DNA of 64,000 nt from a virus, in UHGV virus genome UHGV-0090440. The stretch is one strand, 5' to 3'. Each line of letters begins with the position of its first letter. The first letter of the stretch is position 1. Made by a program: the position numbers and the translations under genes. The notes beneath the pieces are model-generated. The model saw only the letters and a list, made by a program, of their open reading frames with translations, was not told the DNA's origin and searched no databases. Shown piece by piece: positions 1,760-58,240 of the stretch.

Positions 1760-1773
1760 TGTTAGAAATTTAA
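1760..1773 (+). promoter_or_regulatory. recurrent 14-bp motif site (TGTTAGAAATTTAA)
   Basis: One of at least 10 intergenic copies of consensus TGTTAGAAAATTAA; sits at the 3' end of the Cre-like gene, upstream of the dut operon. Confidence 0.4.
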
Positions 1774-1774
1774 T

Positions 1775-2803
1775 TTACGAATCCATCAAGCGGCTATTAG
1801 CCCCCACAGACACACCGCCACGGCGCAGATACCGCATAAGTGTTTCCGGTTTCTTCCAGGTTCCTTCCTGCATGATCTCCACCATAGACACCTGCTTTTC
1901 AGCCATATCAATAGCGGCCCCGACGCGTGCACTATGCCCGGTCCACGTCCGGTATCTTCCTTTGTTTGGCGTAGCATCCCTTTTATTCAGCAACCCCCAG
2001 GCGTCGCTGAATATTTTCTCCATTGCAGGTGCAGTAAGGGGCGTTGTCGTAATCCTGGCCTTATTGCTACGGTGTATCGGCGGGAACAGCACCGCGTCAG
2101 GATGTTCACGAAGCCCGGAAACATCCAGCCAGTCATTCAGCACAGCAGTAGTGCGACGGGAAAGCACCTTATCAAGCCCGGCGGCGGTCGTTATTGTCTT
2201 CGTGTGTGAAATATGTAGCGTGACAGTGTCACCTATTTGGTCCAGATCTCCTACACGAATACGCGAGATTTCCGACATACGCATCAGCGTATTGTATGCA
2301 ACAAAGAGAAAAGCCCGGTTGCGCTGGTCCACCAGCCGTTCTGACCTGGACAGCAGGACGTCGAGCAGTTTCAGGTCGTCCCACCGCAACGGTATAGCCT
2401 GGCCTGTTCGCTCGCCTTTTCCCGTTGCCGCTTCGCGCCGGATGCGCCGCATGGCCAGAGACACACTTTTATCGTCCGACAGCGGCGGGAGGCCACATTG
2501 CGAAAGCAGCATGTTAAGCATGGCATAGTGCTTATCAATGGTGGTCGAAGCCAGATCGGCATCATGCAACTGAAGAAAATACTCGCGGGCCATTTCTGGT
2601 GAGATCGGAAACCAGGCAAGCTGGCGAGCGTGACACCAGCGCGCCCAGGAATGAAACACCAACCGGAGGTCGCGCAGAGTATTCGGCGCATAAGCCCCCT
2701 GGTCATTCATGAACCGCATAAAGTTTTCTGCGGCTTCCTGGTACTCTTTGCCAATGTTGCGCAGAAAACCACCGGAACTGCCAGAGATAATCAACTCACT
2801 CAT
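1775..2803 (-). CDS. cre: Cre-like tyrosine site-specific recombinase
   Basis: 342 aa; colinear similarity to P1 Cre as recalled (SVSLAMRRIRRE, AYNTLMRMSEISRIRVGD, HSARVGAA, GTW, MRYLRR), covering the R..HxxR..W..Y catalytic signature. Confidence 0.9.
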   Translation of the reverse strand: MSELIISGSSGGFLRNIGKEYQEAAENFMRFMNDQGAYAPNTLRDLRLVFHSWARWCHARQLAWFPISPEMAREYFLQLHDADLASTTIDKHYAMLNMLLSQCGLPPLSDDKSVSLAMRRIRREAATGKGERTGQAIPLRWDDLKLLDVLLSRSERLVDQRNRAFLFVAYNTLMRMSEISRIRVGDLDQIGDTVTLHISHTKTITTAAGLDKVLSRRTTAVLNDWLDVSGLREHPDAVLFPPIHRSNKARITTTPLTAPAMEKIFSDAWGLLNKRDATPNKGRYRTWTGHSARVGAAIDMAEKQVSMVEIMQEGTWKKPETLMRYLRRGGVSVGANSRLMDS

Positions 2804-2954
2804 GGAACTATTTCACCTCTATATACAGATGACGCTACGCGAAAAATATAAAAATGACAGGGTAGCTATAAGTTAATTTTCAAAATACAAGCCTTTGATT
2901 CGAAGCACGTATTTTCAGTGATGTCAATACTGTTCATCTACACATGATTATAGT

Positions 2955-2988
2955 CTAACTTTAAATAATGCCAATTATTTAAAGTTAT
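2955..2988. other. candidate lox-type recombination site
   Basis: Perfect 13-bp inverted repeats TAACTTTAAATAA (2956-2968, 2975-2987) around asymmetric 6-bp core TGCCAA; as 13+8+13 it reads CTAACTTTAAATA-ATGCCAAT-TATTTAAAGTTAT, close to loxP arms (TAACTT...ATA) and spacer start (ATG). About 150 bp upstream of the Cre-like start. Confidence 0.5.
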
Positions 2989-3083
2989 AAAATGCCGATT
3001 TTTTTGTAATCCATCATAGATTGATGATGGACAGTAACACGTTGCCTTCATGGTCTTTAATTTGCGAAGTGTGGTTTCAACGG

Positions 3084-3097
3084 TTGGTTTTCTAACG
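3084..3097 (-). promoter_or_regulatory. recurrent 14-bp motif site (CGTTAGAAAACCAA, 11/14)
   Basis: Inverted relative to the site at 3172-3185; together they bracket the presumed promoter of the c1-position gene. Confidence 0.3.
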
Positions 3098-3171
3098 TTG
3101 ATGACAAAAAAATCATAGTCCGATCCTTTACTCGCTCTGTTATTCGACATAAATTTGTCATAGTAATTTTA

Positions 3172-3185
3172 TGTTAGAAAACTAA
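3172..3185 (+). promoter_or_regulatory. recurrent 14-bp motif site (TGTTAGAAAACTAA)
   Basis: Consensus match about 20 bp upstream of the RBS of the 3197-4237 gene. Confidence 0.4.
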
Positions 3186-3196
3186 ATCGCGTAGGA

Positions 3197-4237
3197 ATGA
3201 TGAGTATGAAGTCGATCGAGAAAGAGTACAAACGGTTCCTGCAAACCGCAGAACGGTGGAAAGAGCTGGTGGTCGCAAACTCTGTTTTCCATGATACCAG
3301 TTATGCTGGTGAGGAATTCCGCCATGTTGCATTAACGCATGACCAAAACATATTAGAAGAAGCTGAAAAATGTCTTGCTGAATGGAAAGCCTTCGTTGAC
3401 ATGTGCCGCGATGCCGACGGCAAAGCGTCGAACATTGTTGAGTCCGTATATTCTCCGATCCCATTCATCATTGAGGACACCAATCAAAGCACGCATGTCG
3501 TTGTGCAAAGCGCTACAACAACACGTGCATTTACACGTGAACAATTGCTAAAAAAATACGACAAAATCATAAAGAAAAGCCTGAAAAATAGGGTTTTTTC
3601 TCAAATCGTAGGTGCTCTTGAAGAAGAACAGCGCTTCTTTGAAGCTGAGCCTGAAGGCGAGATCTACCGGGCGCGTAAAGAGGCATATACAGATGTTGTG
3701 CTGACAACAAACATCGAAGGCAGTAATGCCCTTTCTCGCTTTAGAGTTGGCGCACATGGCGCATTGGTTTTCGCAAGACTACCGAAGACAACGATCCCCG
3801 TTGTCAATAATGTTGGTGAACGCCGGAGCATTACAATTTATTCTGGCGTCGAATCGGTACCTTGCAGCCTTCTCGGCGATTTTAACTTATATCGTGTTCG
3901 TGACCTGGAAAAACACCAGCCAAGCTACGTTGCGAAGTCGTATATCTTAAGGAACATCGATATTCGCAATGAAAGCCTTAAGCAGAAATCCGCTAAGATG
4001 CTGGAGGATGCCGATCCGGCTATTCGCCATATCATTGAGCGTAAGATACGTACATCACGTGAAGCAATGGCAAGGCTGGATAAAATGGATCTGGAATTGT
4101 TAGACGTAATGATGGCCTCTGGAGACGACCTGACCGGCATTAAACTGAATGAAGCTCGTAAAAAATACGGCAAAGCAATCGAAGAACGTTACGGATACAC
4201 ATTCCCCCAAACGCAGTACGCCGCGAAGCTCTGGTAA
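3197..4237 (+). CDS. hypothetical protein in the position of the P1 c1 immunity repressor
   Basis: 346-aa ORF (start may be ATG 3206, which has a better-spaced AGGA); divergent from the Cre-like gene, convergent with pacB, flanked by two motif copies, followed by an intrinsic terminator. Function inferred from position only. Confidence 0.55.
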   Translation: MMSMKSIEKEYKRFLQTAERWKELVVANSVFHDTSYAGEEFRHVALTHDQNILEEAEKCLAEWKAFVDMCRDADGKASNIVESVYSPIPFIIEDTNQSTHVVVQSATTTRAFTREQLLKKYDKIIKKSLKNRVFSQIVGALEEEQRFFEAEPEGEIYRARKEAYTDVVLTTNIEGSNALSRFRVGAHGALVFARLPKTTIPVVNNVGERRSITIYSGVESVPCSLLGDFNLYRVRDLEKHQPSYVAKSYILRNIDIRNESLKQKSAKMLEDADPAIRHIIERKIRTSREAMARLDKMDLELLDVMMASGDDLTGIKLNEARKKYGKAIEERYGYTFPQTQYAAKLW

Positions 4238-5773: not shown

Positions 5774-7137
5774 TAATCATCCTCCGGCGGTTCTATCGCG
5801 ATATCATCATCTCCGGCGTCATACCCTGCATCAGATGCATCATAATCACCGTAAATTTCAGCCGTTGCCGAAGGGTCAATATCCAGCTCTTCGTCGTTGG
5901 CCTCGAATTCTCCAGCTTTACGCTCGCCATTGCGGTCATAATCTCCGCACCCCAATTCTTCAACAATGGTTGCCACATCCGCCCGGCGCTCTGCCAGCCA
6001 TTGCGGATGGTTAGCCTGAAGCGTTGCAAACTCCCTTGCCTCTTTGTCCAGCTGTTCATCATCAACATCATTGACGTCAGAAACAGGTGGTTCGAGAAGA
6101 GTGATAGCTTTCGCCGCGCGCGCCGCGAGGATAGCCGGGACGCTGACCCCCTGGCGCTCGATGTATTCAGCAACACCGATATCATCCAGTTCCTCGCGCT
6201 CACGCATACGTATAGCGGCGGCGATAACTCTGGCTGCGCGTGCGTCAGCGCCAATGCGATATTCAATCTCTTTGCCACGCTGTTCGGCCTGTAGGCGTGC
6301 TAATTCGAGTTTTTCTCTGGCCTCAGCCTCTTTGAATGCTTGCTGGCGAGCGCTCTGACGAAGCTTTTCATCCCCCTGTCGCAGCTTTTGTTCGGACTGA
6401 TATATAGCTGCCAACCTACTGATAAAATCATTCATGTAGTAGGCCGCGTCACTGATTAGACCGAGAAGGCGCTGCCCAGGGTGCATTCCTTCTGGCTCTT
6501 TATCGCCCAAGGTGTCTATTTCCGCCTGTAGACGTTCGGCCTCCTGATCAACAATGCTTTGATACTGAAGTGCGCGCTCTTGCGCCATTTGAATTGCTAA
6601 CCGCAGGTGTTCTTCTGCGCCGTTCTTCATCATATCGCGAGCAACATTCGTAGTTGGCAATGTGGCACGCTGCACAGCACCGTCAGGGATCATTGCAGAA
6701 GATCCCTCAATTTTTGGGGCGCTTTTATCTTCTTCGGGGATCATTTTCGCCATTTTTTCGCGCAATGATCTCCTGACGGATTCTTTTATCTCATTGTTAT
6801 TATTTGAATTATTTTCATGATCCGAAGTTTTCTTTCTCGGCATACTTCGGAAAGAACCTGCGCCCTGCGAATTGTCAATTTCTGTAAATTTTGTTTTTTC
6901 TGCACCCTCTTCCTGCTTTTTTGTTGCTCTTCCTGCCCGTTTTTTTTCAGGTGATTTGGTGCTTTTTTTTGTTGTCTTTACCTGCGACCGCACCTCATTT
7001 TTTTTCATATTGAGATGCTTTCTGGCTGTATTGAAGCTAAGGCCATGCTCCTCACAGTATTCCTTTACAGTGATCCCTTTTTCTTCACGCAACGCTATAA
7101 AGCGGGCGCGGTGCTCCTCCCAATTAACCAGACTCAT
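5773..7137 (-). CDS. pacA: terminase small / pac-recognition subunit (PacA-like)
   Basis: 454 aa; N-terminal HTH-like region, long charged coiled-coil middle, acidic C-terminus; immediately upstream of the large subunit. Confidence 0.6.
   Translation of the reverse strand: MSLVNWEEHRARFIALREEKGITVKEYCEEHGLSFNTARKHLNMKKNEVRSQVKTTKKSTKSPEKKRAGRATKKQEEGAEKTKFTEIDNSQGAGSFRSMPRKKTSDHENNSNNNNEIKESVRRSLREKMAKMIPEEDKSAPKIEGSSAMIPDGAVQRATLPTTNVARDMMKNGAEEHLRLAIQMAQERALQYQSIVDQEAERLQAEIDTLGDKEPEGMHPGQRLLGLISDAAYYMNDFISRLAAIYQSEQKLRQGDEKLRQSARQQAFKEAEAREKLELARLQAEQRGKEIEYRIGADARAARVIAAAIRMREREELDDIGVAEYIERQGVSVPAILAARAAKAITLLEPPVSDVNDVDDEQLDKEAREFATLQANHPQWLAERRADVATIVEELGCGDYDRNGERKAGEFEANDEELDIDPSATAEIYGDYDASDAGYDAGDDDIAIEPPEDD
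6686..6833. other. candidate pac site
   Basis: Five GATC sites in about 150 bp inside the PacA-like gene, four embedded in TGATCY elements in both orientations; P1 pac is a cluster of Dam-methylatable TGATCA/G hexamers inside pacA (recalled). Confidence 0.35.
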
Positions 7138-7526
7138 AAAGCAACACCACGCTTTTTAACGGCGGCATTCCACAGCTTATTCGCCATGTCCACCAGCTCT
7201 CGTTGCTCTTTTCGCGCCTGTTCGACTGATTTCCTGCTACAGTTTTTAACCAGTAAACTGCCGTATTCAGGGGTTCGCCCACGCACCTTGAACTGATATC
7301 CGTTCAGGCCATGCAACCAGTATTTTCGTGGGTAAACGCGATCATCAAGCTCACAGATTGCCCTGCTTGAACGAACAAAATGACGAATGATGTTAGTTAC
7401 ACTTACTCGTGAGACATGGAGATGAGGGTATTTTTCTTTGGCGAGAATGGTAATTTCAGTGACTGTCAGATAGCAGTCAGCCCTAATCATGATATCCGCA
7501 ATTTCTGCGCTGCTGATTTGTTCCAT
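7134..7526 (-). CDS. hypothetical protein in the position of P1 lpa
   Basis: 130-aa ORF directly upstream of and overlapping the pacA-like start; motif copy about 80 bp upstream. Function inferred from position only. Confidence 0.45.
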   Translation of the reverse strand: MEQISSAEIADIMIRADCYLTVTEITILAKEKYPHLHVSRVSVTNIIRHFVRSSRAICELDDRVYPRKYWLHGLNGYQFKVRGRTPEYGSLLVKNCSRKSVEQARKEQRELVDMANKLWNAAVKKRGVAL

Positions 7527-7604
7527 TAATCCCCCGGGCAGGAAATGACCGAGGGGATGATAATGAGAATGTTAAAATTGTATAGACTGGCAAAAAGATG
7601 ATTG

Positions 7605-7618
7605 TATTAGAAAATTAA
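7605..7618 (+). promoter_or_regulatory. recurrent 14-bp motif site (TATTAGAAAATTAA)
   Basis: Upstream of the 7134-7526 gene; an inverted partial copy (ATCTAAC) lies 8 bp further on. Confidence 0.4.
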
Positions 7619-7634
7619 TACTAAATATCTAACG

Positions 7635-8027
7635 CTACCAGCGAGACAAACGAACAACATGTTTCACTTTTGCGATCCACTTTCCGCGACAACTATTGAT
7701 TACGGCCTGTGCCAGCTTCAAATTGGCTTCAAAATCAGCCTTACTACCATCAGACTCCACCAGCATTCCGCCATCTATTTCTGGTAAACATAGATAATCC
7801 TGCTCAACCTGCAGCGGCATTGATGGCTCTCTGAATGGCGTTACTTGCTCTGCTTTCCAGCGAAAGCTAACCCTCATCCCCCTGGTGGTCATTACCAGAT
7901 AGCCTGTTATAGTGCTTTTATGGCCCACATCAGTACGCGTGGCATTGCATGACACGATCTTACAGTTAGCGATAGACCACTCCATATTGGTGGCCTGTTG
8001 AGTGCTTAATTTGGTAGTCCCGTACAT
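7635..8027 (-). CDS. hypothetical protein
   Basis: 130-aa ORF translationally coupled to the upstream 191-aa ORF. Confidence 0.5.
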   Translation of the reverse strand: MYGTTKLSTQQATNMEWSIANCKIVSCNATRTDVGHKSTITGYLVMTTRGMRVSFRWKAEQVTPFREPSMPLQVEQDYLCLPEIDGGMLVESDGSKADFEANLKLAQAVINSCRGKWIAKVKHVVRLSRW

Positions 8028-9055: not shown

Positions 9056-9131
9056 TGGTGGCCCCTACCGGACTTGAACCGGTGACCGTGCGATTATGAG
9101 TCGCCAGCTCTAACCACTGAGCTAAAGGGCC
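9056..9131 (-). tRNA. tRNA-Ile (anticodon CAU, ileX-like)
   Basis: 76-nt cloverleaf by hand folding: acceptor GGCCCTT/AGGGGCC, D-arm GCTCAGTGGTTAGAGC, anticodon loop CTCATAA, T-loop TTCAAGT, encoded CCA. Near-identical to E. coli ileX as recalled; CAT could also read Met. Confidence 0.85.
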
Positions 9132-10593: not shown

Positions 10594-10680
10594 TGGCGGA
10601 GAGTAATGGAATCGAACCATCATCGCTTGCGCAATGGGACGGTTTTCAAGACCGCTTGAGCACCATGCTCCCTACTCTCC
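10594..10680 (-). tRNA. tRNA-Ser(UGA)-like, atypical; possible pseudogene
   Basis: 87 nt: perfect 7-bp acceptor GGAGAGT/ACTCTCC, T-arm GATGG-TTCGATT-CCATT, anticodon stem-loop GCGGT-CTTGAAA-ACCGT (anticodon TGA), 17-nt variable arm, encoded CCA; but A at position 8 and a short D-loop. Hand-folded only. Confidence 0.4.
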
Positions 10681-11385: not shown

Positions 11386-11461
11386 TGGTGCCGGTTAACG
11401 GACTCGAACCGCTGACATCCTGCTTACAAGGCAGGCGCTCTACCAACTGAGCTAAACCGGC
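11386..11461 (-). tRNA. tRNA-Thr (anticodon UGU)
   Basis: 76 nt: acceptor GCCGGTT/AACCGGC, D-arm GCTCAGTTGGTAGAGC, anticodon loop CTTGTAA, T-loop TTCGAGT, encoded CCA. Confidence 0.9.
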
Positions 11462-11465: not shown

Positions 11466-11552
11466 TGGTGGGGAGTGATGGAGTCGAACCACCCGAGTCG
11501 CAATGACAGTAGATTTACAGTCTACCCCGCTGCCCCTACGGACTAACTCCCC
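11466..11552 (-). tRNA. tRNA-Tyr (anticodon GUA), type II
   Basis: 87 nt: acceptor GGGGAGT/ACTCCCC, anticodon stem-loop GTAGA-CTGTAAA-TCTAC, long variable arm, T-loop TTCGACT, encoded CCA. Confidence 0.8.
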
Positions 11553-11557: not shown

Positions 11558-11632
11558 TGGCGATGGTGGGTGGATTCGAACCACCGACCAGTTGGTTAAC
11601 AGCCAACTGCTCTACCGCTGAGCTACACCATC
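11558..11632 (-). tRNA. tRNA-Asn (anticodon GUU)
   Basis: 75 nt: acceptor GATGGTG/CACCATC, D-arm GCTCAGCGGTAGAGC, anticodon loop CTGTTAA, T-loop TTCGAAT, encoded CCA. Confidence 0.9.
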
Positions 11633-12488: not shown

Positions 12489-12840
12489 ATGTGCATTGAT
12501 GATTAGATGCAGCATGTACCGTTACTCTCTGCCGGACCATCATCAATGAACACCTTAAAAAGACCTTCCGTGGCTCAACATGGACTGTCGTTTACTCCGC
12601 AAAGTGCTCTCTCTGAAACCACTTTCCGCACTAAACCTGCTGAATTTTGGCCTGCACGGTGCCAAAGCGTGCTCTTGCGTTACCATACTTTTCTAACGCT
12701 TTAATTTGTTAAATGCTGGTGGGCGAACAATAACCAATAAGTGACTATCAAGCCCAGCAAGCGAAACGTGGGTGCCGCCCACCAGCAAGGAAAATTCTAT
12801 GTTAAGTTACCTTCACAATCAATACATTCGAATCGTAATT

Positions 12841-12854
12841 TTAGATTTCTAACA
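12841..12854 (-). promoter_or_regulatory. recurrent 14-bp motif site (TGTTAGAAATCTAA)
   Basis: At the 3' end of the 402-aa gene, oriented toward the tRNA cluster on the minus strand. Confidence 0.4.
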
Positions 12855-12856
12855 CA

Positions 12857-14065: not shown

Positions 14066-14089
14066 TGCTGTTCCCGTTACCTTGTTAAA

Positions 14090-14103
14090 TTAGTTTTCTA
14101 ACA
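14090..14103 (-). promoter_or_regulatory. recurrent 14-bp motif site (TGTTAGAAAACTAA)
   Basis: Identical to the site at 3172-3185; lies between a terminator and the 402-aa gene start. Confidence 0.4.
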
Positions 14104-14144
14104 TATTTTATTAGTTTGATGACGGTAGCGAAAGATGCAATAAA

Positions 14145-14689: not shown

Positions 14690-14998
14690 TTAATCAAGAC
14701 AAACATACTCCGTGATAGCTTTTATGGCTTCAGCGGCACTGCGCGCCTCAAAGCAGTAGTAACCGGCTTCTGTGAGGCGCGTCATCCAGACGAGTTGTTC
14801 GGGAGTCAGGCGATTTCTCCCATGTTTCATCTCAATGCGCATTCCGTGGTATCCCCCGCAAGCAAGGTCTATAGAAAGATCGGGATATCCCTTCTTTTGG
14901 CCCTCTGCCACCATTTTTATTGCCGTCCTTATGCCTCGCAGGCCACCGTTTGGAGTGGCGTGAGTATGCTCATACACATAACGCATATTGCGATACAT
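14690..14998 (-). CDS. VRR-NUC-type small nuclease (PD-(D/E)xK)
   Basis: 102 aa with the pattern GYPDLSIDLACGGYHGMRIEMKHGRNRLTPEQ (D...E.K), typical of VRR-NUC domains. Confidence 0.55.
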   Translation of the reverse strand: MYRNMRYVYEHTHATPNGGLRGIRTAIKMVAEGQKKGYPDLSIDLACGGYHGMRIEMKHGRNRLTPEQLVWMTRLTEAGYYCFEARSAAEAIKAITEYVCLD

Positions 14999-15131
14999 CC
15001 AGTCCAGGACGCGAACCTGCTCGTAATGCTCATGGTTCCTTTTGATTAGATCTGGGTTTTTCTCCAGTTCTCTAAGAGCTGCGGCATGTGGGGATGTTTC
15101 AGAATATTCACTGCGACGCCTTCTCTTTCGC

Positions 15132-15145
15132 TCTATTTTCTAACA
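15132..15145 (-). promoter_or_regulatory. recurrent 14-bp motif site (TGTTAGAAAATAGA)
   Basis: About 135 bp upstream of the VRR-NUC gene, in transcription orientation. Confidence 0.35.
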
Positions 15146-15327
15146 CACCCATTGATAGTAAATATGCAAAATAATAACAACAACGTTAGGTTTGTAGAAT
15201 AAGAGAGATACTACTCAAGGATCATCTATATGCAACAGGTCGGATGTCCTTTTAAGGTAAAGCGTGACCTTAATCAACAAGGAGGGTAAATCGCATGGCA
15301 TTTACCCAACCTGTTATTTTTAAAGGG

Positions 15328-15582
15328 TTATATTTTATCCTGTTCGGATAATTCTTTGATTGTCTTGTCGATTGCGATCAACCAACCTTCATAGGTTAAA
15401 TCATCAACAAGTTCTACCAACTTATCATCGGTGTGAGGAAAGTATATCCAGCTCCAGTTCGCCGGGTTTTCTGCTTTTCGCAGCGTAAAAACCTTCTTGT
15501 ATCGGTGGAACTCAAGGACATACCCCTTCGATATGGAATATCCCTTTAGGTCTTCGACCGTAAACCTACGATTCTTTCGCAT
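15328..15582 (-). CDS. hypothetical protein
   Basis: 84-aa ORF, 3 bp downstream of the 144-aa ORF. Confidence 0.45.
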   Translation of the reverse strand: MRKNRRFTVEDLKGYSISKGYVLEFHRYKKVFTLRKAENPANWSWIYFPHTDDKLVELVDDLTYEGWLIAIDKTIKELSEQDKI

Positions 15583-16055: not shown

Positions 16056-19000
16056 TTAAGCCGCCGCTTCAATGATTTTACGCACTTCATCAATTGAATA
16101 GCGCGTCGATACCATCCAGGCCGGACGGTCAAAGTCCACATCGGCAACCGGGTTAACTTCGAAGTTCCAGAAACGCCCACCGATTTTCTTGATGGCATCT
16201 TTTGCGTTGCGAATAGATGAAGATCCGGGCATATCTGCAATGAGATAAACAGCACCAGCGTCTTCACTTACGCTCCACCAGCGACCGCGGACACGTGCTT
16301 TGGCGCGAATAGGCTTATCGTTTACCACGATAATGTAATCATCATTTGCTGCCTCGTCAGCCTTGTTCTCAGCAGCATCAGCCTGTTCTTCCCGTTCAGT
16401 CTTAGCCGCCGCAAGACGTTCAGCAATCTCTGACTCCGTAGCGCCACTATTTTTAAGCGACACAAAGTCATCCCACGTTGCAGATTTCAGAGCATCAGGC
16501 AACTCTTCCACATACCCGCCCGCTTTTAAGGCGTTAGCATGGCGTATAGCCATCCCGACAAGACGATTCAAGCTATCTGCATCTGCGAAATCATCACGGG
16601 TAATGCTTTTATCCTCAAATGCATGAATTAACGCCCCCGCTTTAATCCAGACTGTTGCAGATGTTTCAAGCGGATTATCGGCATTAGAAATGCTTAGTTG
16701 CGCACTGTAAACTGACTGACCTGCCAACGAGGCAAGTGACGCCCAACCATCTGCATCACTTTGCATTTTGTACTGATCAAACAGCGCATCACGCCATGCA
16801 TTTAGCGCCATGCGTGTTTTCTCAATTTTGGTTGTGATTTTGGACGTTCGCAGTTGTTCGAACATCTGCGAAATCTCTGAACCATTGGTGAAGGCTTTCA
16901 TGCGCCCCTGGAAATCGCGGAAAGAAAGCACGCCTCGCCAGTACGTTTCCAGGCCTTCTCCATTTGGCTTGCGGAACAAGCTGCGGACATCTTCCTGAGT
17001 CACTTTTTCAAGTGAACGCCCGGAGAGATCGCGCCCTGCCATCCAGCCATCGAACGCCTTGACCACATCATCCATAGTGGCCTGAGCGCCCCATGCCTCC
17101 ATACCTTGCTCATAATCGAAGCCAAACAATGCACGGAGAAAACCTTCTGCCTCTGAAATACGAAGTGGGTTATCACCTGTCTGGATTTTCGCGACTTCGC
17201 GTTTTAATGCTTCGTCGTTTACATCAGGATAAATCCATTGTTCAGGTGCTATCTCGTCACTTCCAGATGCGCTAATTTTTTGACCAATCATCCCGCCATA
17301 GGTAAAGGCCATTTGAATCTGACCATTGGCGTTACGATAAGCCCAATAGTTTACATCCGGTGCTCCTTGCCAACCGCCACGATCTCTCCCAGTTACCCGC
17401 ATAACACCGCTACGAATAGCGTCATAGAATTGATCGCGAGAAAGAGAGGTTGAAAGCTGGTGGCTTTGAACACCACGTGCCGCTATTTCTCGTGATTCAG
17501 CCACCCCCTCTTCAAATGTTACCGCTTCAACCACTGAGTCAAACGGTAATGTCATGGTTGAGCCAGGAGAACGAGAGTGGCGACTTGCTCTATCCAGCCA
17601 GGCGACGCGGCAGGTGTATTGCGCTTTTTCGCCCTCAATTTGTGTCACGCGTACAATCGCCGTTGTCTCGTATTCAGCATCAATGACTGCACGGTAGTAA
17701 CTACCTTTATGCAACAGGATGTTCTTGCCAGTGCGCATATACTCCTGCGGGTTCTGAATAACATCGATACTGATATCCAGCACACCAGACTTAATAGCAC
17801 GCTCCACATCACCACGAGAGCGTTTCATAACAGTATCCGCGTCCTTCGCCCTGGTGATTGCAAATCGCAATTCACGCACTCTTTTTTTAGCTTTGCTTAG
17901 TGCTGAAAGCGTATATTTCTGTCCGTTTTTGTTGGTGCCGCTCTTAATCAGTCCATCCAGATCACTCTGGTATCGTTGCGCCTGCTCCATCGCGCTTTTC
18001 AGTTCTGCCTCCATCATGCCGATATCCTTCCCGGCAGCATTCGCCGCTTTCAGGTAGTTATCGAGAGCATTATTGGCTTCGCGTTGCGCTTTAAGTCGCA
18101 GGCGTTCCTCACGTTCTTTCGACTGACGAGCCATAATTGCGCGTCGTTCTTCCGGATTTGCCGCCAGCATAATGGCGCGTTCATCAGCGTCATCCGCATC
18201 ACCATTGGCGATCTCTGACATATCGGAGGTCATCACCATCTTGATCCAGTCTTTCTTACGTTTAAGCGTATCCAGACGGAAGTCATCGAATGTGCCTTTG
18301 CCACAATAATAGTGAACATTAACCTTCTCTTGCGGAGAACCTACGCGCGCACCGCGCCCATTTCGTTGGTCGATACTGGCAGGAGTCCAGGGTAGTGTCA
18401 GGTGGTGAATATCGGTCGTTCCAATATGCAGGTTGATACCTACTTCGGCTTTCTTGTTACAGATAATGATCCGCGTGCGCCCTTCGTTATAGTCGGCAGC
18501 AATACCTTCCATCCCCTCAAGGCCAGCATCATTTTTAGCAGAGAGATAATCCTCATATTGGGCCAGTTTACTGTAGTAGGTTTCCCATGCGCCTTCTTTG
18601 TATTCACCGTCTTTGTTTGGCGTCGGTTCGGTCGGTTTTTTGACCTTTTTCAGCTTAACACCACCAGCCTGGCTAACAGTCGTAGCATTGATAATGCCTA
18701 TCTCCTGCTCTGACATTTGCAACGCACTGGCAATGATGCGACGTAGTTTCTGGTGCTGGGCTTTCTCGTCGATAAAGATAATTTGCTTACCGTTCTTAAG
18801 CCCTTCACGAAGGTTCTCGATAAGTGCGGCATACTTAGGCGGGATCGGGTGTGACACCTGTTTCATGTCGATGCCTGCATCAGCAATTGCCTTGAGTATT
18901 TCAGCCTCCAGGTCAATGCTGGCACGCAATTCGACGTGATTTGGATGCTCACTAAATGTTGTAGCTACAACCTTGCTGGTACGGGTACTGACCAGGCCTC

Positions 19001-22000
19001 CGGTCGCATCCTCCTCTGCTTCTTCTGCATCGTCTGCCGCTTTCCCACCAGCCACTTTTGGTAGGTTATTAGCTATAGACTTCACCTGTTCAGTAAGCTC
19101 TACAGGGAACTGGAATGTGATAGCGCTGGCGTAAAGATCCGGGTCGATAGCGACCTTATCCATGTCGCGAATGATAGAGAAAATGAAATCATCCGGTTTC
19201 TCGCGAGTGATATTGCCTTCATCATCGACAGTGACGTCATCACCACGACTTAACTCCTGCGCGCGTTTACGAAGCTCTTCATAAGCTGCTTGCTGCTCTG
19301 GAGTCATTGGGATCTGCAAGGTGTTTTCGACGATATCCGGGATTTTTACCGTTGCACCAACATCGGAAGCCGTTTTAAGCGTTGTCCAGCGGTGGAAAAT
19401 GCCACGCAGACCATCAAGGTTCTGGAAGCCCACCAGCCCCTGTTTCTCTTCCACTTCGCCAGAAATTTTCTGGACCTGAACAGTGGCTGTTTTACCGAAC
19501 ACTCGCACAAAGTCGTCAGGGGTAATAATCCCCATGTGCATCCACTCGTGCTGAGGGATCACCGTTGACAGCATGTTGAAGGCGTCAATAGGGCTATTAA
19601 CCAGCGGAGTTGCTGTCAGCATTACGACGCCGCGCCCATTGTGACGTTTCATCATGTACGCAGCTTTTACAGCCATGTCACGGGCCATTTTGGATACCGC
19701 CGGATTAGGTAAATATGCCAGTTGCCCCGCTTCACGCCCGGCACCAAAGGAGTTGCGGTAGTTGTGCCCTTCGTCGGCAATTACGCTATCGAAGTTCATA
19801 TCCTCAAAGTACGGGATATTCTGCTTCTTCGCTGTACCGGTATTCGCGGCCTGGTCCTTAATCTTGTTCTTCTTCTGCGCATCACGGTGCTTGCCTGACG
19901 CCAGGTCAAGACGCCCCATTTCGGCGGCATTAAAGACAGCCTGCTGTGAGTTTTCTCCGATGGTTTCATCGCGCAACGGGATAGATGCGAACTGCTCTTT
20001 TGTCATGATGACCGTTCGCCAGTTCGACGATGGGATCATGTTCATGCGTTGAGCGATAACGGCACTGGCGGATTCTTTAACAACATTACGGGTGATCGGA
20101 TTGCCGTCGTTATCAAGTCGCGGGGTGCCGTCCTGGTCGAGCACTGGGGCAGTCTGAATATTTCCGTCACCATCGCGCACTTCGTCCAGACCGATAAACA
20201 TCATATTGGCGAAGGCATCTGCACTGTAGAAGCTCTGTGCCTCGTGATACCAGTTCTGGTATACGGCCTTTGGAACAACGATACAGGTACGTTTGGTTCG
20301 CCCGGTTTCAAAGTTATAGGCTTCCAGTGCCAGCGCGGTCGTCGTTTTACCCAAACCAGTTCCGAATCCCATAATCCCGCGCCCATCTTCCGACAGACGA
20401 CGAACTTCTTCGTTCTGGTAAGAAAGCGGTATACGTTTCCCGCTGATGCCTTCAAGCCCCAGGGGTGCGTCTGAATGGGTAAATGGAATATAACCGTTAA
20501 AGGCGTCGTTATAATCGCGGGCGATCTGGTCTGCCTGCGGGTGAGTTCTTAACCAGTCGTTAAAACTCGTCTCAAGCTGGGCGATTTTGTCCAGGTACTC
20601 GTTAGCGTTCTGTCCGCGCGGTTTAACACCGTTCAGGTAGTTCTCAAGCTGATTCAGGAAGCCATCTTTGTTATTCGCTTTCTTGAACTCGTTCCCGTTT
20701 TTGCCGTTTACGGTTCGTAGTTGATAGCCAGTAAATACCCCGTCCTTACCTTCGTAATCGTCCGGGGATACCAGAATGCCGTTCTCAACCTTAAGGTCGG
20801 GTTCTGTATACTTAAACTCGTCATAGCCCTGCTCTGCCAGGAACTCTTTTATCAGGCGGCGATCCAACCACCGTGCGTTAAGGTTTACCGTGACTTTGTT
20901 CAGCGGTGTAAACGTGCGTTTCTCTTCGATTTTTGAAAGCTGGCGCTCAAAGTTGGCCTTCCGCTCTCCTGTGGACGCGTCTCGCCAGCCCACCAGCAGT
21001 GCCACTTTTGATTTAATATCACCGCTGGTGGCACGGCCCATCGGTAGCAGGCAACCATATCCATCAATAGCGATATCGTCGAATTTCGCCAGGTATTCCA
21101 GTGCTTGATCGTCGTCTTCTGGCAGTTCGCCTTTAAACGCCTCGCGGAAGTCATCAAGATTGATAGGATTAAGGGCAACATCGCTGAAAAGGTGTGTCAC
21201 AACCTGTTCCGGACGAGTGAAATCAATACCAGCAGCCCCTTTGCTAACATCAAGCCGTCCGGACAGCAGATCGGATGCTTCACCGTCCTGATTGACGTTC
21301 CCGGTAAATGTCAGCCAGTTCTTCGCGCCCGCTTCGGTAATGTCGTTTAGCTTAATGGCGTGTGGTGGGCCATATTTAGCAACTTCGGCAGCCGTCAGAC
21401 GTGCGGCATCAGCCAGTTCATCATCGACGTTTTCACCAAGGTTACGCTTATCCAGCGCTTTATTGATAAGTTGCCCGATCAGCGCACCGCGCATAATGCG
21501 CTCACGGTCTTTTTCGCGTTGTTTCCCAGCAAAGCGAATCATTGCCGCTACTTCATCACTGATAACCGATGGATAGTCGGAAGCGATCGCGGATATCTGC
21601 CCCCATGACAGAGCCAGAATGCCGTTTGTTGATTGGAACGTTGTTTGCAGATCACCGAATGTCGAAACACCATATCGGCTTACATCAAGTACGGAGGATT
21701 TGGTTGTCGCATCTTTAACCCATTGCAGGCCATCAAACTCGTGCCAGATGCCACCTACAAGGCGCTTGTCTCCTACTTTGGCGCCCTGCCATGCCTGAGT
21801 AGTTACGCCAAGCAAATCCCAATTAATGCGGCTTTCAAAGCGGCGTGATAGCGCGGTTTTCATCGACTCATTGGATACACGACCGTCCTTTTTCACCACC
21901 AGAGTATTGCGGAAGCTGGTACGTTCCATGTCGCCGTAAACAAATCGCTTCCCTTCGGTTGTAAACCATTTTCCTTTGAGGAAGGTATCCCAAAGGACGT

Positions 22001-22973
22001 TTGCCGATTTGAGTGTTGAATCATCCGTGTCGGGGATCATCTCCAGGAAGGTTTCCGGGTGTTTACGCAATACCCATACGTCCACCACGGTATCTGTACC
22101 GGATTCGCTGAACGTACCGGAAGGCATACGATGTGCGCCCAAAAATTCCGCTTTACGGCTGACTTTATCGCGCAATTTTTTATATTTCGTACCATCGGTC
22201 ATGCCATTCGGCACCACCAATACGATAAGCCCACCAGGCTTAACCTTGTCGATCGTGCGCAGCACAAAGTAATTGCCAACGTTCTTCTCGTTTGCATATG
22301 CCGGATCAAGCCCGGCGACACCGGAACGCCCTTCACCAAACGGTACGTTACCAACAGCGTGATCATACATTGCGTCTTTCGCCGCCAGCGCCTCAAACGC
22401 CCCGATATTCACATCGTCTTCCGGGTGCAAAAGCTGGTTTATTCGACCGGAAATCGGAGACAGTTCGGCGCTGGTCATTATCATGCCCTGTCGTTTTGTC
22501 TCCTGGAAAATACCTGTGCCCGCTGATGGTTCCAGTACGTGCCCGCCATCAATACCGTAGTCAGCAAACAGATCCCATATACCTTCAGCCATAAACTGTG
22601 GCGTGTAGTATTCGTATTGGCTGCCCTCACCATCTGTCAGGCCGCCTTCACCGGTATACCCGGCAAGAATCTGACGCTGTTCGTCAGTTAATTTCGCCCC
22701 ATCGAAGCCGGGCGGAAGGGAATTAAGAAGCTCTACTGCGGCGTTGTTTGCTGCCCGCCGTGTTTTTTGAATACTGACACCATCGACTTTCTTAACGCCA
22801 AAGGTCGCAACAGCACGTAATTTATGCAACCGGCTAACAATCTCAATCAGTTCGCCTAAGCTGGAGGCTTCACTGATTGAATGAAGTAGTTTATCCAAAG
22901 GATTACCCCCTCTAAACCGTAAAAAATCCGCTATGCGGTACGGTTGAGAGGGTATGGAGAATGTTATTTTCAC
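16056..22973 (-). CDS. darB: DarB-like antirestriction protein (N6-adenine methyltransferase fused to DExH/SNF2-type helicase)
   Basis: 2305 aa; MTase motifs VLEPSAGTGIF (SAM-binding) and NVPFG; helicase motifs GTGLGKT (Walker A), ADEGHNYRN (DEGH), LTATPLVNSP, QRNGRGARVG (motif VI). Size and architecture match P1 DarB as recalled. Confidence 0.85.
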   Translation of the reverse strand: MKITFSIPSQPYRIADFLRFRGGNPLDKLLHSISEASSLGELIEIVSRLHKLRAVATFGVKKVDGVSIQKTRRAANNAAVELLNSLPPGFDGAKLTDEQRQILAGYTGEGGLTDGEGSQYEYYTPQFMAEGIWDLFADYGIDGGHVLEPSAGTGIFQETKRQGMIMTSAELSPISGRINQLLHPEDDVNIGAFEALAAKDAMYDHAVGNVPFGEGRSGVAGLDPAYANEKNVGNYFVLRTIDKVKPGGLIVLVVPNGMTDGTKYKKLRDKVSRKAEFLGAHRMPSGTFSESGTDTVVDVWVLRKHPETFLEMIPDTDDSTLKSANVLWDTFLKGKWFTTEGKRFVYGDMERTSFRNTLVVKKDGRVSNESMKTALSRRFESRINWDLLGVTTQAWQGAKVGDKRLVGGIWHEFDGLQWVKDATTKSSVLDVSRYGVSTFGDLQTTFQSTNGILALSWGQISAIASDYPSVISDEVAAMIRFAGKQREKDRERIMRGALIGQLINKALDKRNLGENVDDELADAARLTAAEVAKYGPPHAIKLNDITEAGAKNWLTFTGNVNQDGEASDLLSGRLDVSKGAAGIDFTRPEQVVTHLFSDVALNPINLDDFREAFKGELPEDDDQALEYLAKFDDIAIDGYGCLLPMGRATSGDIKSKVALLVGWRDASTGERKANFERQLSKIEEKRTFTPLNKVTVNLNARWLDRRLIKEFLAEQGYDEFKYTEPDLKVENGILVSPDDYEGKDGVFTGYQLRTVNGKNGNEFKKANNKDGFLNQLENYLNGVKPRGQNANEYLDKIAQLETSFNDWLRTHPQADQIARDYNDAFNGYIPFTHSDAPLGLEGISGKRIPLSYQNEEVRRLSEDGRGIMGFGTGLGKTTTALALEAYNFETGRTKRTCIVVPKAVYQNWYHEAQSFYSADAFANMMFIGLDEVRDGDGNIQTAPVLDQDGTPRLDNDGNPITRNVVKESASAVIAQRMNMIPSSNWRTVIMTKEQFASIPLRDETIGENSQQAVFNAAEMGRLDLASGKHRDAQKKNKIKDQAANTGTAKKQNIPYFEDMNFDSVIADEGHNYRNSFGAGREAGQLAYLPNPAVSKMARDMAVKAAYMMKRHNGRGVVMLTATPLVNSPIDAFNMLSTVIPQHEWMHMGIITPDDFVRVFGKTATVQVQKISGEVEEKQGLVGFQNLDGLRGIFHRWTTLKTASDVGATVKIPDIVENTLQIPMTPEQQAAYEELRKRAQELSRGDDVTVDDEGNITREKPDDFIFSIIRDMDKVAIDPDLYASAITFQFPVELTEQVKSIANNLPKVAGGKAADDAEEAEEDATGGLVSTRTSKVVATTFSEHPNHVELRASIDLEAEILKAIADAGIDMKQVSHPIPPKYAALIENLREGLKNGKQIIFIDEKAQHQKLRRIIASALQMSEQEIGIINATTVSQAGGVKLKKVKKPTEPTPNKDGEYKEGAWETYYSKLAQYEDYLSAKNDAGLEGMEGIAADYNEGRTRIIICNKKAEVGINLHIGTTDIHHLTLPWTPASIDQRNGRGARVGSPQEKVNVHYYCGKGTFDDFRLDTLKRKKDWIKMVMTSDMSEIANGDADDADERAIMLAANPEERRAIMARQSKEREERLRLKAQREANNALDNYLKAANAAGKDIGMMEAELKSAMEQAQRYQSDLDGLIKSGTNKNGQKYTLSALSKAKKRVRELRFAITRAKDADTVMKRSRGDVERAIKSGVLDISIDVIQNPQEYMRTGKNILLHKGSYYRAVIDAEYETTAIVRVTQIEGEKAQYTCRVAWLDRASRHSRSPGSTMTLPFDSVVEAVTFEEGVAESREIAARGVQSHQLSTSLSRDQFYDAIRSGVMRVTGRDRGGWQGAPDVNYWAYRNANGQIQMAFTYGGMIGQKISASGSDEIAPEQWIYPDVNDEALKREVAKIQTGDNPLRISEAEGFLRALFGFDYEQGMEAWGAQATMDDVVKAFDGWMAGRDLSGRSLEKVTQEDVRSLFRKPNGEGLETYWRGVLSFRDFQGRMKAFTNGSEISQMFEQLRTSKITTKIEKTRMALNAWRDALFDQYKMQSDADGWASLASLAGQSVYSAQLSISNADNPLETSATVWIKAGALIHAFEDKSITRDDFADADSLNRLVGMAIRHANALKAGGYVEELPDALKSATWDDFVSLKNSGATESEIAERLAAAKTEREEQADAAENKADEAANDDYIIVVNDKPIRAKARVRGRWWSVSEDAGAVYLIADMPGSSSIRNAKDAIKKIGGRFWNFEVNPVADVDFDRPAWMVSTRYSIDEVRKIIEAAA

Positions 22974-23048
22974 GGGGACGATACTACCGTCAAAATCACA
23001 TACTCCCCATAGTTTGCCTACTTATTAACCAATGACCGGAAAAAAAAT

Positions 23049-24220: not shown

Positions 24221-24274
24221 CAAATCATCGAGCGAGCATTTGCCGATCATTGGGAAGTTTTGTAGGCACACAGG

Positions 24275-41862: not shown

Positions 41863-41956
41863 ACGAACATAGCCCCTTCATAAGCAATGAACCAAAGGAG
41901 AGTATGCTCAGTTTGTGATTTCCGTTGTTCTTCCCCCAAATGCGGGGGAAGAATTA

Positions 41957-49476: not shown

Positions 49477-49581
49477 TTATTCCTCCGAAAAGCAGGTATC
49501 TGTTCATTTTCCAGAGGATAGGGAGTGTGTGATTTGCGATGGGGATTGAATGAAGATCTTTGCCGGTCGAGAAGCGATTAT

Positions 49582-55907: not shown

Positions 55908-55974
55908 GCTGGTTCTTATCCTCTAAAGCGAGAGAACGAGGCAAGGCTGCCCACGGTTAATGGGCAGCCTCTGA

Positions 55975-56253
55975 TCAGGATTCGCTTACCGTGAAGGTAT
56001 CGCCTACGGTTACTTCTTTCGTAGTTGGTTCAACACTGACGGTGCTTACGCTTTTATGTGCCTCCCTAACAGTGACTGTGCACTGTGCGGTTTTATTGCC
56101 GTCATTTGTTTTGATTGTCAGCACTGCCTCCCCGGCCTTAAGAGCGGTACATGTAGTGCCATCAACCTGGACAATATCAGGGTGATCTGACTCAACAGTG
56201 AAAGATTTGTCTGTTGCGTCAGGTGGCGTGATAGTTACTTGAATGTTTGCCAT
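55975..56253 (-). CDS. bacterial Ig-like (Big_2) domain protein, virion decoration candidate
   Basis: 92 aa with the alternating-strand Big_2 pattern (TVT..V.VDG..A.KAGEAVLTIKT.DG..A.CTVTV). Confidence 0.55.
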   Translation of the reverse strand: MANIQVTITPPDATDKSFTVESDHPDIVQVDGTTCTALKAGEAVLTIKTNDGNKTAQCTVTVREAHKSVSTVSVEPTTKEVTVGDTFTVSES

Positions 56254-56261
56254 TTTTTCTC

Positions 56262-56290
56262 CTGGACGCCCCTTAATCAGGGGCGTGTTT
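56262..56290. other. GC hairpin between capsid-candidate and Ig-like genes
   Basis: GACGCCCC-TTAATCA-GGGGCGTG followed by TTTTTGCC on the plus strand; on the minus-strand mRNA it lies just before the Ig-like gene RBS. Confidence 0.35.
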
Positions 56291-56399
56291 TTGCCTTACT
56301 TCTGCTTTGTTTTTTTCTGTGCCTTTGAAGTGTTCGCGGCGATAGTTTCACCTTCATCTACGTCAAGTGACGTTGGTGATACCGACACGTTCGCCACCA

Positions 56400-58097
56400 T
56401 CACTTTTTTTCGTTAACCTTGCCTGTCAGCATGTCGATAGCACCTTCTTTGGCACGAGTCAGACGCAGGCGGGTGAAGTAGTTTTCACCGTTGCGAGGAT
56501 GTACTTCGTTGATAGCACTGCCCCAGAGAGTGGTACGGTTAACGAGAGACGGATTGGTTTCGTGAACGTAAGGGATTGCTGGGACTGCATCACCAGCAAT
56601 CAGACCGGCTTTACCGATGCCTTCGCCACGCCCATAGAAGAAGATGTCATCCAGCCCGAAGTCATATCCCTGTGCCAGGAATTGCTCACAGACAGGTTGC
56701 GGCACTTCGTAAATACGAATCGTGCCAAACAGGGTGCCGATGTACTGTACATACGGCGACTGAACGTAACCTGGTGCGATCTGGAAGTGCTGTGGAGGCA
56801 GAGAGCGCAGGAAGTTCGCGGCGTCACTACCAGCAAAGCCGCCACGAATACCCGTTGTCAGGGTACGATTTGCCATTTCTTGAGACAGAGCGTTTACTGC
56901 GTGACGCAGGAGGCCGACCCAGGACTCATAGTTTTGAGCTTCCGGCAGAGCCACATCAAATTCACGACCATAAACGGTATGGAATACCAGGGTGCGCAGA
57001 CGCATGATGTCGGTTTCATGGGAGATCCAGTTACGCATCGCGGAGAACTGAAGTGCCGCTAATTCAAGGCCGTGCTCACGGCTTAAATCGGATGCGGACA
57101 TTACCGTGTGTTCGGAAGCAAGTACGTACTGGGACGGACGAACTTCGTACTTACGCATAGCCTGGTTGATCACCGGAATCAGGCTTGGATTGCGCTCGAT
57201 GTTAATTTCGACCTGAACAGCAATTTCAGTACCTACTGGCGGAGCCTGGGTAAATGTAATGTCAATGACACCAGTGTCATAGGCAACTTTGGCAGTCGCT
57301 GAGAAAGTATTACCTTTGCTGTCTTTAGCATTGAAATAAAGGTTGCCATCGCCGTCGTCAACTTTGGACGGTTTGCGGTTGATCAGCAGTTTGTTATAAC
57401 CAGCGCGAAGCGGGCAGGATTGTCCCTCAAATTTTTGGATGTTGAACTGGAAGGTTTTGGTGCTGCCATCCCCTTTAGTGGAAAGGGCATACAGGCGCTT
57501 CATTTGAGAATAAACACCAGCTGACTGCATATTCAGTTCGTCACCTTGGTTGAAGGTGCCGAATTTTGTGCCTGCTACGTTGACCAGTTCATAAATATTT
57601 GACTCGTCACGATCACAAGGAACAAAAGTACAGGCATCACTGGTAGCAGCGCCCAGAGAAGCAGGCAGAATTAGAGCAGCATATTGAGCAACTTTCATTA
57701 CGCCGTCAGAGCTACGCATTGATTGCGCGACAGACTCAAACATTGCCTTACCCGTGCCTTCATGGGTATCACTGGCACATTCAGTCATCAGGCGTTCAAG
57801 AGCCAGGTGTGCGTTCGCCAGGATGTCACTTGCCGGGTAATGACCATGTTGACGTTTATACTCATGCAGAGACATAGCCCACCCACCAGTGATCTGACGA
57901 GCGACCTCTGGATTTACGCCTTCAAACATAGGCACTTTCTGGATTGCTTTATCCAGGTTTTCCATCATTACTGCCTGGTCAGCAATCATGTTGCCTGCTG
58001 CATCGGTGGTCGGATCGACGGTCATAGCCATGACGCTTGCCGCCCGATTCATAATCTCGCGCTCGCGATCACGAGCTGGCTGAATGTTTTTATTCAC
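56400..58097 (-). CDS. major capsid protein candidate
   Basis: 565 aa, first gene of the operon; could alternatively be the sheath. Confidence 0.4.
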   Translation of the reverse strand: MNKNIQPARDREREIMNRAASVMAMTVDPTTDAAGNMIADQAVMMENLDKAIQKVPMFEGVNPEVARQITGGWAMSLHEYKRQHGHYPASDILANAHLALERLMTECASDTHEGTGKAMFESVAQSMRSSDGVMKVAQYAALILPASLGAATSDACTFVPCDRDESNIYELVNVAGTKFGTFNQGDELNMQSAGVYSQMKRLYALSTKGDGSTKTFQFNIQKFEGQSCPLRAGYNKLLINRKPSKVDDGDGNLYFNAKDSKGNTFSATAKVAYDTGVIDITFTQAPPVGTEIAVQVEINIERNPSLIPVINQAMRKYEVRPSQYVLASEHTVMSASDLSREHGLELAALQFSAMRNWISHETDIMRLRTLVFHTVYGREFDVALPEAQNYESWVGLLRHAVNALSQEMANRTLTTGIRGGFAGSDAANFLRSLPPQHFQIAPGYVQSPYVQYIGTLFGTIRIYEVPQPVCEQFLAQGYDFGLDDIFFYGRGEGIGKAGLIAGDAVPAIPYVHETNPSLVNRTTLWGSAINEVHPRNGENYFTRLRLTRAKEGAIDMLTGKVNEKK

Positions 58098-58226
58098 GGT
58101 TAAGCCCTAAATTCGGGCGCGGCGTGAAGGTTCTTTTGACGGGCTAACAATACCTACTTTGTGATTTAGTCAATAGTTTTAGTAAAATAAAATCTATTAA
58201 CAGTCACGTTGTTATGTGATTTAATT

Positions 58227-58240
58227 TTAATTTTCTAACA
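58227..58240 (-). promoter_or_regulatory. recurrent 14-bp motif site (exact consensus TGTTAGAAAATTAA)
   Basis: In the divergent region between the capsid-candidate operon and the 58256 gene, 16 bp before the latter's ATG. Confidence 0.4.

Follow-up and report, generated by a model that had tools for sequence, protein, structure and literature searches.

Predicted operators of a D6-type C1 immunity repressor dispersed over a plasmid-prophage genome

The 64,000-nucleotide stretch of the virus genome UHGV-0090440 analyzed here (henceforth the window, meaning the whole of this stretch) contains a recurrent asymmetric motif, TGTTAGAAAATTAA, with nine strong sites that are scattered in both orientations across 56 kb. 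These sites are likely, with a probability of roughly 85%, to be the operators of a D6-type C1 immunity repressor encoded within the window at 3197-4237, and the set as a whole is most likely the expected heteroimmune counterpart of the C1 operator network of phage P1. An earlier reading of the same DNA, made from the sequence alone, had proposed an immunity-repressor regulon of distinct specificity with the 3197-4237 product as the repressor. This proposal is favored by the homology of that product to C1, the positions of the sites, the mutual absence of the motifs of the two systems from each other's genomes and the association of the motif with a particular C1 lineage. The operator sequence would thereby define the immunity group of the D6-like prophages, and it predicts which genes are silenced in them, including lpa, repL, the tRNA operon and the dut operon.

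The window and its relatives

The window is closely related to Escherichia phage D6 (MF356679), a plasmid prophage and distant relative of P1, with 89-98% identity in a megablast search with the first 12 kb and in a full blastn comparison. Coordinate 1 of the D6 record corresponds to window position 2972, and the end of that record to window 1-2971. Gene names in the window were carried over from the D6 annotation. The relatives compared were D6, CP104667, CP026818, the Leclercia and Citrobacter phage-plasmids NZ_CP042508 and NZ_CP099368, P1 (AF234173), in whose record the C1 operators and late promoters are annotated, and a metagenomic contig, while a segment of the unrelated enterobacterial IncF plasmid NZ_CP058198 served as a negative control. 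Plasmid prophages like D6 are frequent in E. coli, Salmonella and Shigella, and a tblastn search with the window C1 matched 149 plasmid records. The GenBank records of D6 have annotated rox and cix sites and no operators; the full-text literature yielded nothing relevant on the motif or on D6/C1 operators, though the D6 genome paper, which this search did not cover, may describe them.

The motif and its departure from chance

Allowing up to two mismatches, TGTTAGAAAATTAA is found nine times in the window, at 1760, 3172, 7605 and 25411 on the plus strand and at 12841, 14090, 15132, 24207 and 58227 on the minus strand. Dinucleotide shuffles gave a mean of 0.52 matches, with none of 100 shuffles reaching nine, and a Markov null derived from the window's own intergenic sequence (44% G+C) predicts 0.12. 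The excess of the motif over chance is thus confirmed. The tenth close match originally counted, at 3084, has three mismatches, and matches of this class are as a whole at background level; nevertheless, two of them, at 3084-3097 and 12685-12698, keep a GTTAGAAAA core in the relatives. Of the two weaker sites that had been proposed, the one at 24191 has six mismatches and is a degenerate inverted partner of 24207, for which the relatives scanned show no counterpart; the one at 63857 breaks the invariant core and is not supported.

All nine strong sites lie inside the non-coding 12.5% of the window (P ~7e-9), a count that takes 15095-15183 as non-coding and becomes eight of nine if the D6 annotation is followed, in which the pmgM open reading frame (ORF) runs over the site at 15129-15147. 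The claim that every site is intergenic holds with this reservation. In D6 itself, 15 of 15 strong sites are intergenic in a genome of which 10% is intergenic.

Alignment of the sites lengthened the 14-mer by two bases upstream and about three downstream, giving a 19-bp element. This extent was absent from the sequence-only reading, as were the partner site at 7618-7636 and the weak site at 12685-12698. The consensus TGTGTTAGAAAATTAATTT, obtained from 41 distinct site sequences in four genomes, has an invariant TTAG and A16, with T3, G4, A9, A10 and A11 being nearly invariant, and the sites can be described by the general form T(G/A)T(G/A)TTAGAAA(A/T)(T/C)TAA(T/A)(T/A)T over 17-19 bp. The 19-mer is asymmetric and without dyad symmetry. 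Relative to the downstream gene, five or six sites are oriented toward it and three or four away from it (1758, 7603, 25409, and 58224 when taken relative to orf52). Inverted pairs are seen at 7603/7618 in the window, at 64114/64129 and 80707/80722 in D6, and at several more places in the relatives; the paired 19-mers abut, with a 15-bp offset.

The C1 protein encoded by the window

The gene presumed to encode the cognate repressor is as follows:

3197 to 4237, plus strand: c1, encoding a protein of 346 aa

Its product is 99% identical to the C1 protein of D6 and, in a BLASTP comparison, 21% identical over 267 residues to that of P1 (E=3e-8). Both proteins fall into PHROG 1678 (E=5e-170 for the window C1 and E=3e-140 for P1 C1), and database homologues of the window C1 bear the PF27008 domain (Phage_P7_repressor_C1). 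Against NF041318 (phage_rep_C1), the NCBIfam equivalog model for P1 C1, the window protein scored 25.7 bits (E=7e-6), which lies far below the cut-off of 500; it is therefore a distant homologue and no equivalog of P1 C1, consistent with a changed DNA specificity.

Genomic positions of the sites

The predicted operators of the window, together with their weaker candidates, are the following:

1758 to 1776, plus strand: operator TGTGTTAGAAATTTAATTT, position weight matrix (PWM) score 30.3, overlapping the dre stop codon (dre: 1775-2803, minus strand) and 45-57 bp ahead of the minus-strand orf117-orf116-dut operon; no P1 counterpart
3084 to 3097, minus strand: weak candidate operator CGTTAGAAAACCAA, three mismatches, between rox and c1
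3170 to 3188, plus strand: operator TATGTTAGAAAACTAAATC, 9-18 bp ahead of the possible c1 start codons; position of P1 Oc1
7603 to 7621, plus strand: operator TGTATTAGAAAATTAATAC, located 77 bp before lpa (7134-7526, minus strand); position of P1 Olpa
7618 to 7636, minus strand: weaker inverted partner AGCGTTAGATATTTAGTAT, PWM score 11.4, GTTAG core kept in four genomes
12685 to 12698, minus strand: weak candidate operator CGTTAGAAAAGTAT, about 150 bp further downstream than the 12838 site
12838 to 12856, minus strand: operator TGTGTTAGAAATCTAAAAT, immediately upstream of the promoter-like TTGATT-17-TAGAAT (12822-12794); position of P1 Oban
14087 to 14105, minus strand: operator TATGTTAGAAAACTAATTT, between pmgR and pmgS; position of P1 OpmgR
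15129 to 15147, minus strand: operator TGTGTTAGAAAATAGAGCG, PWM score 17.6, at the 5' end of pmgM; region of P1 O26/Oppp
24204 to 24222, minus strand: operator TGTATTAGAAAATTAATTT, with the c4 a1b1 targets, C4 RNA and icd following after about 90 bp; position of P1 Oc4 (Op51)
25409 to 25427, plus strand: operator TATGTTAGAAATTTAATTT, in the intergenic region between pro and repL, 172 bp ahead of the latter (24275-25237, minus strand); position of P1 OrepL (Op53)
58224 to 58242, minus strand: operator TGTGTTAGAAAATTAAAAT, the sole exact match to the 14-mer, 14 bp upstream of orf52 (58256, plus strand)

In P1, C1 acts through 22 dispersed asymmetric operators of 17 bp, and both RepL and Lpa are under its control (PMC8546580). 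The C1 operators annotated in the P1 record lie at c1, lpa, ban (tRNA operon), pmgR, O26/Oppp, c4, repL, dmt and ref, and these positions match seven of the nine window sites, namely those at c1, lpa, the tRNA operon, pmgR/S, pmgM, c4-icd and repL. Counting two D6 loci located outside the window, i.e. the inverted pair 64114/64129 before hrdC-dmt (equivalent to P1 Odmt) and the site at 76630 before ref (equivalent to P1 Oref), the number of P1-equivalent loci rises to nine. Further D6 sites beyond the window are at 75978 and in the 80707/80722 pair. The earlier impression of a distribution like that of the P1 C1 operators is therefore borne out.

The site at 3170-3188 is, from its placement, the predicted autoregulatory site of c1. 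The weak candidate between rox and c1 keeps its core, TTTTCTAA, in four genomes in which the flanks have diverged, and is plausible as a weak operator. In the same interval, after the rox site (window ~2960-2995), the window and D6 read AAGTTATAAAA, and CP104667 and CP026818 read AAGTTAGAA, a variant that gives the latter two an extra GTTAGAA core beside rox. The 7603 site is conserved in four genomes and would form, along with its partner at 7618-7636, what is predicted to be a bivalent operator; the product of the adjacent lpa gene matches PF25716 (E=4e-56). The site at 1758 is kept in D6 (at 89946), CP104667, CP026818 and L015, with a TTAGAAT site in the same place in the Leclercia and Citrobacter plasmids.

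The candidate promoter TTGATT-17-TAGAAT, at which the 12838 site abuts a -35, heads a minus-strand operon of five tRNA genes; in P1, the Obanab operator is likewise followed by tRNA genes, tci and ban. CP104667 and CP026818 have sites at a distance equivalent to that of the weak candidate at 12685-12698. ARAGORN places the tRNA genes for Met, Ser, Thr, Tyr and Asn at 9056-9131, 10594-10680, 11386-11461, 11466-11552 and 11558-11632, all on the minus strand; Rfam detects four of these five and agrees on all four. The D6 GenBank record has three tRNAs, put on the plus strand, with no Tyr or Met tRNA among them.

The site ahead of pmgS follows a terminator-like hairpin at 7-22 bp from the start of the gene and is kept in D6, CP104667 and CP026818. 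The core of the pmgM site is kept in CP104667 and also in D6, where there is a 1-bp indel. The D6 pmgM ORF is annotated across this site, and in the window a 1-bp indel in its A-run shifts the frame (window 14998-15183); either the annotated start of pmgM would be too far upstream, or there would be a frameshift in the window or in D6. The sites at c1, pmgS and orf52, at 7-22 bp from the start codon, must overlap the promoter or the leader.

At the immunity-I region, Rfam detects the C4 RNA at 23909-23994 and the c4-a1b1 element at 24062-24114, both on the minus strand; a possible promoter, TTTCCT-17-TATGAT, abuts the c4 site, and in P1 Oc4 lies 99 bp ahead of a1. Downstream of icd, at window ~23633-23637, about 0.8 kb of D6 (19859-20689) is absent, along with orf17 and the orf18 antirepressor, so that the immunity-I region of the window has the C4 RNA and icd and no ant gene. 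The 25409 site before repL is kept in D6 and CP026818. Finally, the 58224 site, which has no equivalent in P1, is 127 bp upstream of the capsid gene 23 and is kept in D6 (54201) and CP104667.

Divergence of the motif along with C1

The annotated P1 operators align to ATTGCTCTAATAAATTT (short form ATTAGAGCAAT), a consensus that has no match at up to three mismatches in the window; conversely, P1 contains no match to the degenerate 14-mer TRTTAGAAAWYTAA. This confirms the earlier statement that the sequence differs from the P1 operator. However, when the P1 operator is read on the other strand as AAATTTATTAGAGCAAT, its best-conserved bases, ATTAG.G.A, coincide in part with the TTAG that is invariant in the D6 type. 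Given these observations, the simplest reading, based on sequence comparison, is that these are homologous repressor-operator pairs in which the TTAG(A) core would have been retained, the flanks having diverged and the immunity specificity with them. Such a difference in the operators gives a sequence-level reason why cross-repression between D6-type and P1-type elements should not occur.

An element shared by so many intergenic regions might alternatively be a core promoter element, with TGnTAGAAA acting as an extended -10, or a binding site for a host nucleoid protein. The TGTTAGAAA motif does resemble an extended -10, it is AT-rich, and the five or six sites that point to a downstream gene would be suitably oriented. 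Yet the remaining three or four point away from the gene in need of a promoter, the inverted abutting pairs and the conservation over 19 bp, well past a -10 hexamer, are unexpected of such an element, and P1 lacks it despite sharing the host and gene order, as does the unrelated enterobacterial plasmid segment. Moreover, the motif is not known to match the consensus sequences of IHF, CRP or LexA. This explanation is accordingly very unlikely.

Among the genomes examined, the motif is found only where C1 is 43-99% identical to that of the window. The degenerate TRTTAGAAAWYTAA is present in genomes with C1 69-99% identical, and in the regions upstream of c1 and lpa in four genomes with C1 proteins in this range the motif stands out as a fully conserved island between diverged flanks. 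CP104667 (C1 79.5% identical) and CP026818 (69%) bear it at orthologous loci, often as inverted pairs with the 15-bp offset. In the metagenomic contig, with a C1 that is 43% identical, a GTTAGAAAA core is present at the c1, lpa, recombinase-downstream and pdcB positions. No match to TRTTAGAAAWYTAA was recovered in the Leclercia or Citrobacter phage-plasmids, whose C1 proteins are 29-30% identical, or in the unrelated IncF segment.

In place of the D6-type TGTGTTAGAAAATTAA, the Leclercia and Citrobacter plasmids show CCTTAGAAT(T/C)(T/G)A at equivalent positions. The Leclercia TTAGAAT motif surfaced upon counting inside intergenic regions, and in the 84-kb Citrobacter plasmid all eight TTAGAAT heptamers fall between annotated genes: they occur upstream of c1, lpa, a pmgS-like gene, ref and rdgC-dam, and after the recombinase, pmgS-like and pro genes. 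Three operator forms can thus be recognized, ATTAGAGCAAT in P1, TGTGTTAGAAAATTAA in D6 and CCTTAGAAT in Leclercia and Citrobacter. It is an evenly balanced question whether this pattern extends across the P1 supercluster, i.e. whether C1 repressors in general read a common TTAG(A) core, with lineage-specific flanks setting immunity and the regulon staying fixed while the identity of the repressors fell to ~21%. If true, it would provide a natural series of mutually orthogonal repressor-operator pairs, on which the reading of an asymmetric site by a single C1 molecule could be mapped.

The sites might instead be bound by some other phage regulator, for example an early activator or a second repressor whose gene lies elsewhere in the D6-type genomes, given the many D6-lineage genes that have no known function and the fact that the motif follows the D6-type backbone in its entirety no less than it follows c1. 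This is improbable on several grounds: one site lies directly before c1, as autoregulation predicts; the regulon fits that of P1 C1, as defined by experiment, at nine loci, of which seven are in the window and two more in D6; the distant C1 lineages have a related TTAGA-core motif at the same loci, as expected for a diverging repressor-operator pair; and no alternative candidate was identified.

A distinct element upstream of late operons

The alternative put forward with the original proposal was that of a late-promoter element, in which case the motif would be the activator box of Lpa-dependent late promoters. A dispersed, conserved motif is compatible with this in a phage with an Lpa that shares only 31% identity with P1 Lpa, one motif site does lie upstream of the capsid gene, and the -22 box of P1, AAGTGACTT, is not enriched in the window. 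However, the late operons bear another box, AAATCACA-N7-TAnnnT, which was first seen as common to the upstream regions of the D6 late operons. At up to one mismatch it occurs eight times in the window against 1.8 expected, each time oriented toward a late gene:

22949 to 22969, minus strand: late box
22993 to 23013, plus strand: late box
28165 to 28185, minus strand: late box
29612 to 29632, minus strand: late box
33377 to 33397, minus strand: late box
41901 to 41921, minus strand: late box
49515 to 49535, minus strand: late box
58147 to 58167, minus strand: late box of the capsid gene 23

The genes concerned are darB, orf16 (peptidoglycan hydrolase), prt, ddrB (the box being upstream of ddrA too), lydA, R, pmgB and the capsid gene 23. 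The P1 late promoters align to AAGTGACTT-N4-TAnAAT, whose -22 box the D6-type late box resembles; AAATCACA-N7-TAnnnT is probably the D6-type Lpa-dependent late promoter. The TGTTAGAAA motif, on the other hand, is situated in mixed orientation upstream of early and immunity genes, i.e. c1, lpa itself, repL, c4 and the tRNA operon, and is absent from the late operons in question with the exception of the capsid/orf52 divergent region. Here both elements are present, the late box serving gene 23 and the operator lying beside the divergent orf52. The putative morphogenetic genes pmgS and pmgM do bear the motif, and their P1 counterparts bear C1 operators. Further, the Citrobacter plasmid has the D6-type late box without the motif. 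The late-promoter reading was dropped once this separate oriented box had been found, and hardly any likelihood attaches to it.

Proposed mode of repression and points against it

Binding by C1, its stoichiometry and the mechanism of repression at each promoter are what we infer for the predicted operators, as follows. In the plasmid prophage, C1 would occupy the dispersed sites, probably with one monomer per site by analogy with P1, where C1 binds as a monomer per site. Occupancy would either block sigma-70 promoters or act as a roadblock. The units silenced in this manner would be c1 itself, through autoregulation, lpa and through it all late genes, and the lytic replicon repL, and further the c4-icd immunity-I operon, the tRNA operon, pmgS, pmgM, the orf117-dut operon and orf52-53. 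Upon loss of repressor activity all of these units would be derepressed together.

Several observations weigh against the assignment of the sites to C1. First, the Lpa protein, which is 31% identical to P1 Lpa and 37% identical to the Citrobacter Lpa, diverges in parallel with C1, so that lineage association alone cannot separate the two regulators; their roles are nevertheless separable because the position and orientation of their elements differ and the late box is distinct. Second, the AlphaFold2 model of C1 from an eight-sequence alignment (mean predicted local distance difference test score of 65, predicted template-modeling score of 0.42) is too poor to reveal a DNA-binding fold, and no relative of C1 was found among PDB structures. 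Third, the position of P1 lxc is occupied (15328-15582) by a gene without similarity to P1 Lxc, an analysis of a D6-like plasmid in the literature likewise recovered no Lxc (PMC6799933), and no coi ORF fits in the ~200 bp between rox and c1; as neither Lxc nor coi was found in these places, the circuit departs from that of P1 in ways that could include the binder. Fourth, in scans with the sigma-70 consensus the promoter geometry is heterogeneous and defined at the level of the consensus only: the best promoter-like match is followed by some of the sites at 20-50 bp, and at lpa the site precedes the best -35 match by 19 bp.

Other features of the window and related plasmids

The Chi octamer GCTGGTGG occurs 30 times in the whole window against 1.7 expected, and related plasmids are similarly enriched. 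An 8-mer enrichment analysis of the Leclercia locus recovered Chi and clusters of TGATCA and no operator. The TGATCA hexamer clusters of the Leclercia plasmid pE1_003, at 17039-17080 and 16788-16810 between pacA and parM, have a 12-bp spacing and could be a pac site or a centromere.

In the Enterobacter IncF plasmid NZ_CP058198, a match at 20001-20417 is limited to residues 207-345 of C1 and is located ~60 bp from an IS5 transposase gene and beside a terminase gene. It was considered as a natural C1 chimera and rejected, since a partial match beside an IS5 transposase is probably a fragment, and the plasmid was used only as a negative control; the match looks like the remnant of a D6-like element.

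Comparison with known systems

The predicted operators described above reveal no new regulatory principle; they would provide a second specificity class, and perhaps a third one, for the study of how C1-type repressors recognize asymmetric sites. Several known systems invite comparison. Lambdoid operators, the targets of CI and Cro, show dyad symmetry, bind dimers and form clusters at two loci (OL and OR). Like the sites in the window, they are operators of an immunity repressor that set heteroimmunity groups and include autoregulation of the repressor gene; the window sites differ in being asymmetric and scattered over at least 56 kb. The late promoters of P1 are similar in that they are conserved boxes dispersed in a P1-family genome, but unlike the motif they are oriented, stand at a fixed distance from the -10 element (AAGTGACTT followed by 4 bp) and lie upstream of morphogenesis and lysis operons. 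The Leclercia (NZ_CP042508) and Citrobacter (NZ_CP099368) plasmids share the gene order and the TTAGAA core at equivalent intergenic positions, those after the recombinase gene and before c1, lpa, pmgS, ref and rdgC-dam, but differ in the flanks of that core and in the absence of the D6-type 14-mer, and their sites are predicted here rather than annotated in the records.

The closest parallel is offered by the C1 operators of P1 and P7. In both cases a homologous repressor is associated with asymmetric sites of ~17-19 bp, of which there are around ten to fifteen or more in both orientations throughout the genome, and these lie at c1, lpa, repL, c4, the tRNA operon, pmgR/S, dmt and ref. Bivalent inverted pairs are another common feature, and TTAG constitutes the best-conserved bases in both families. 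Beyond TTAG(A), however, the sequences are unrelated to those of P1, and the AT-rich arm is on the opposite side of the core. The P1 pairs overlap at an 11-bp offset, whereas the D6-type pairs abut at a 15-bp offset. The C1 protein itself has 283 aa in P1 and 346 aa in the window. Finally, the dut operon and orf52-53 would be extra targets in the window, where no counterpart of Lxc or Coi was detected.

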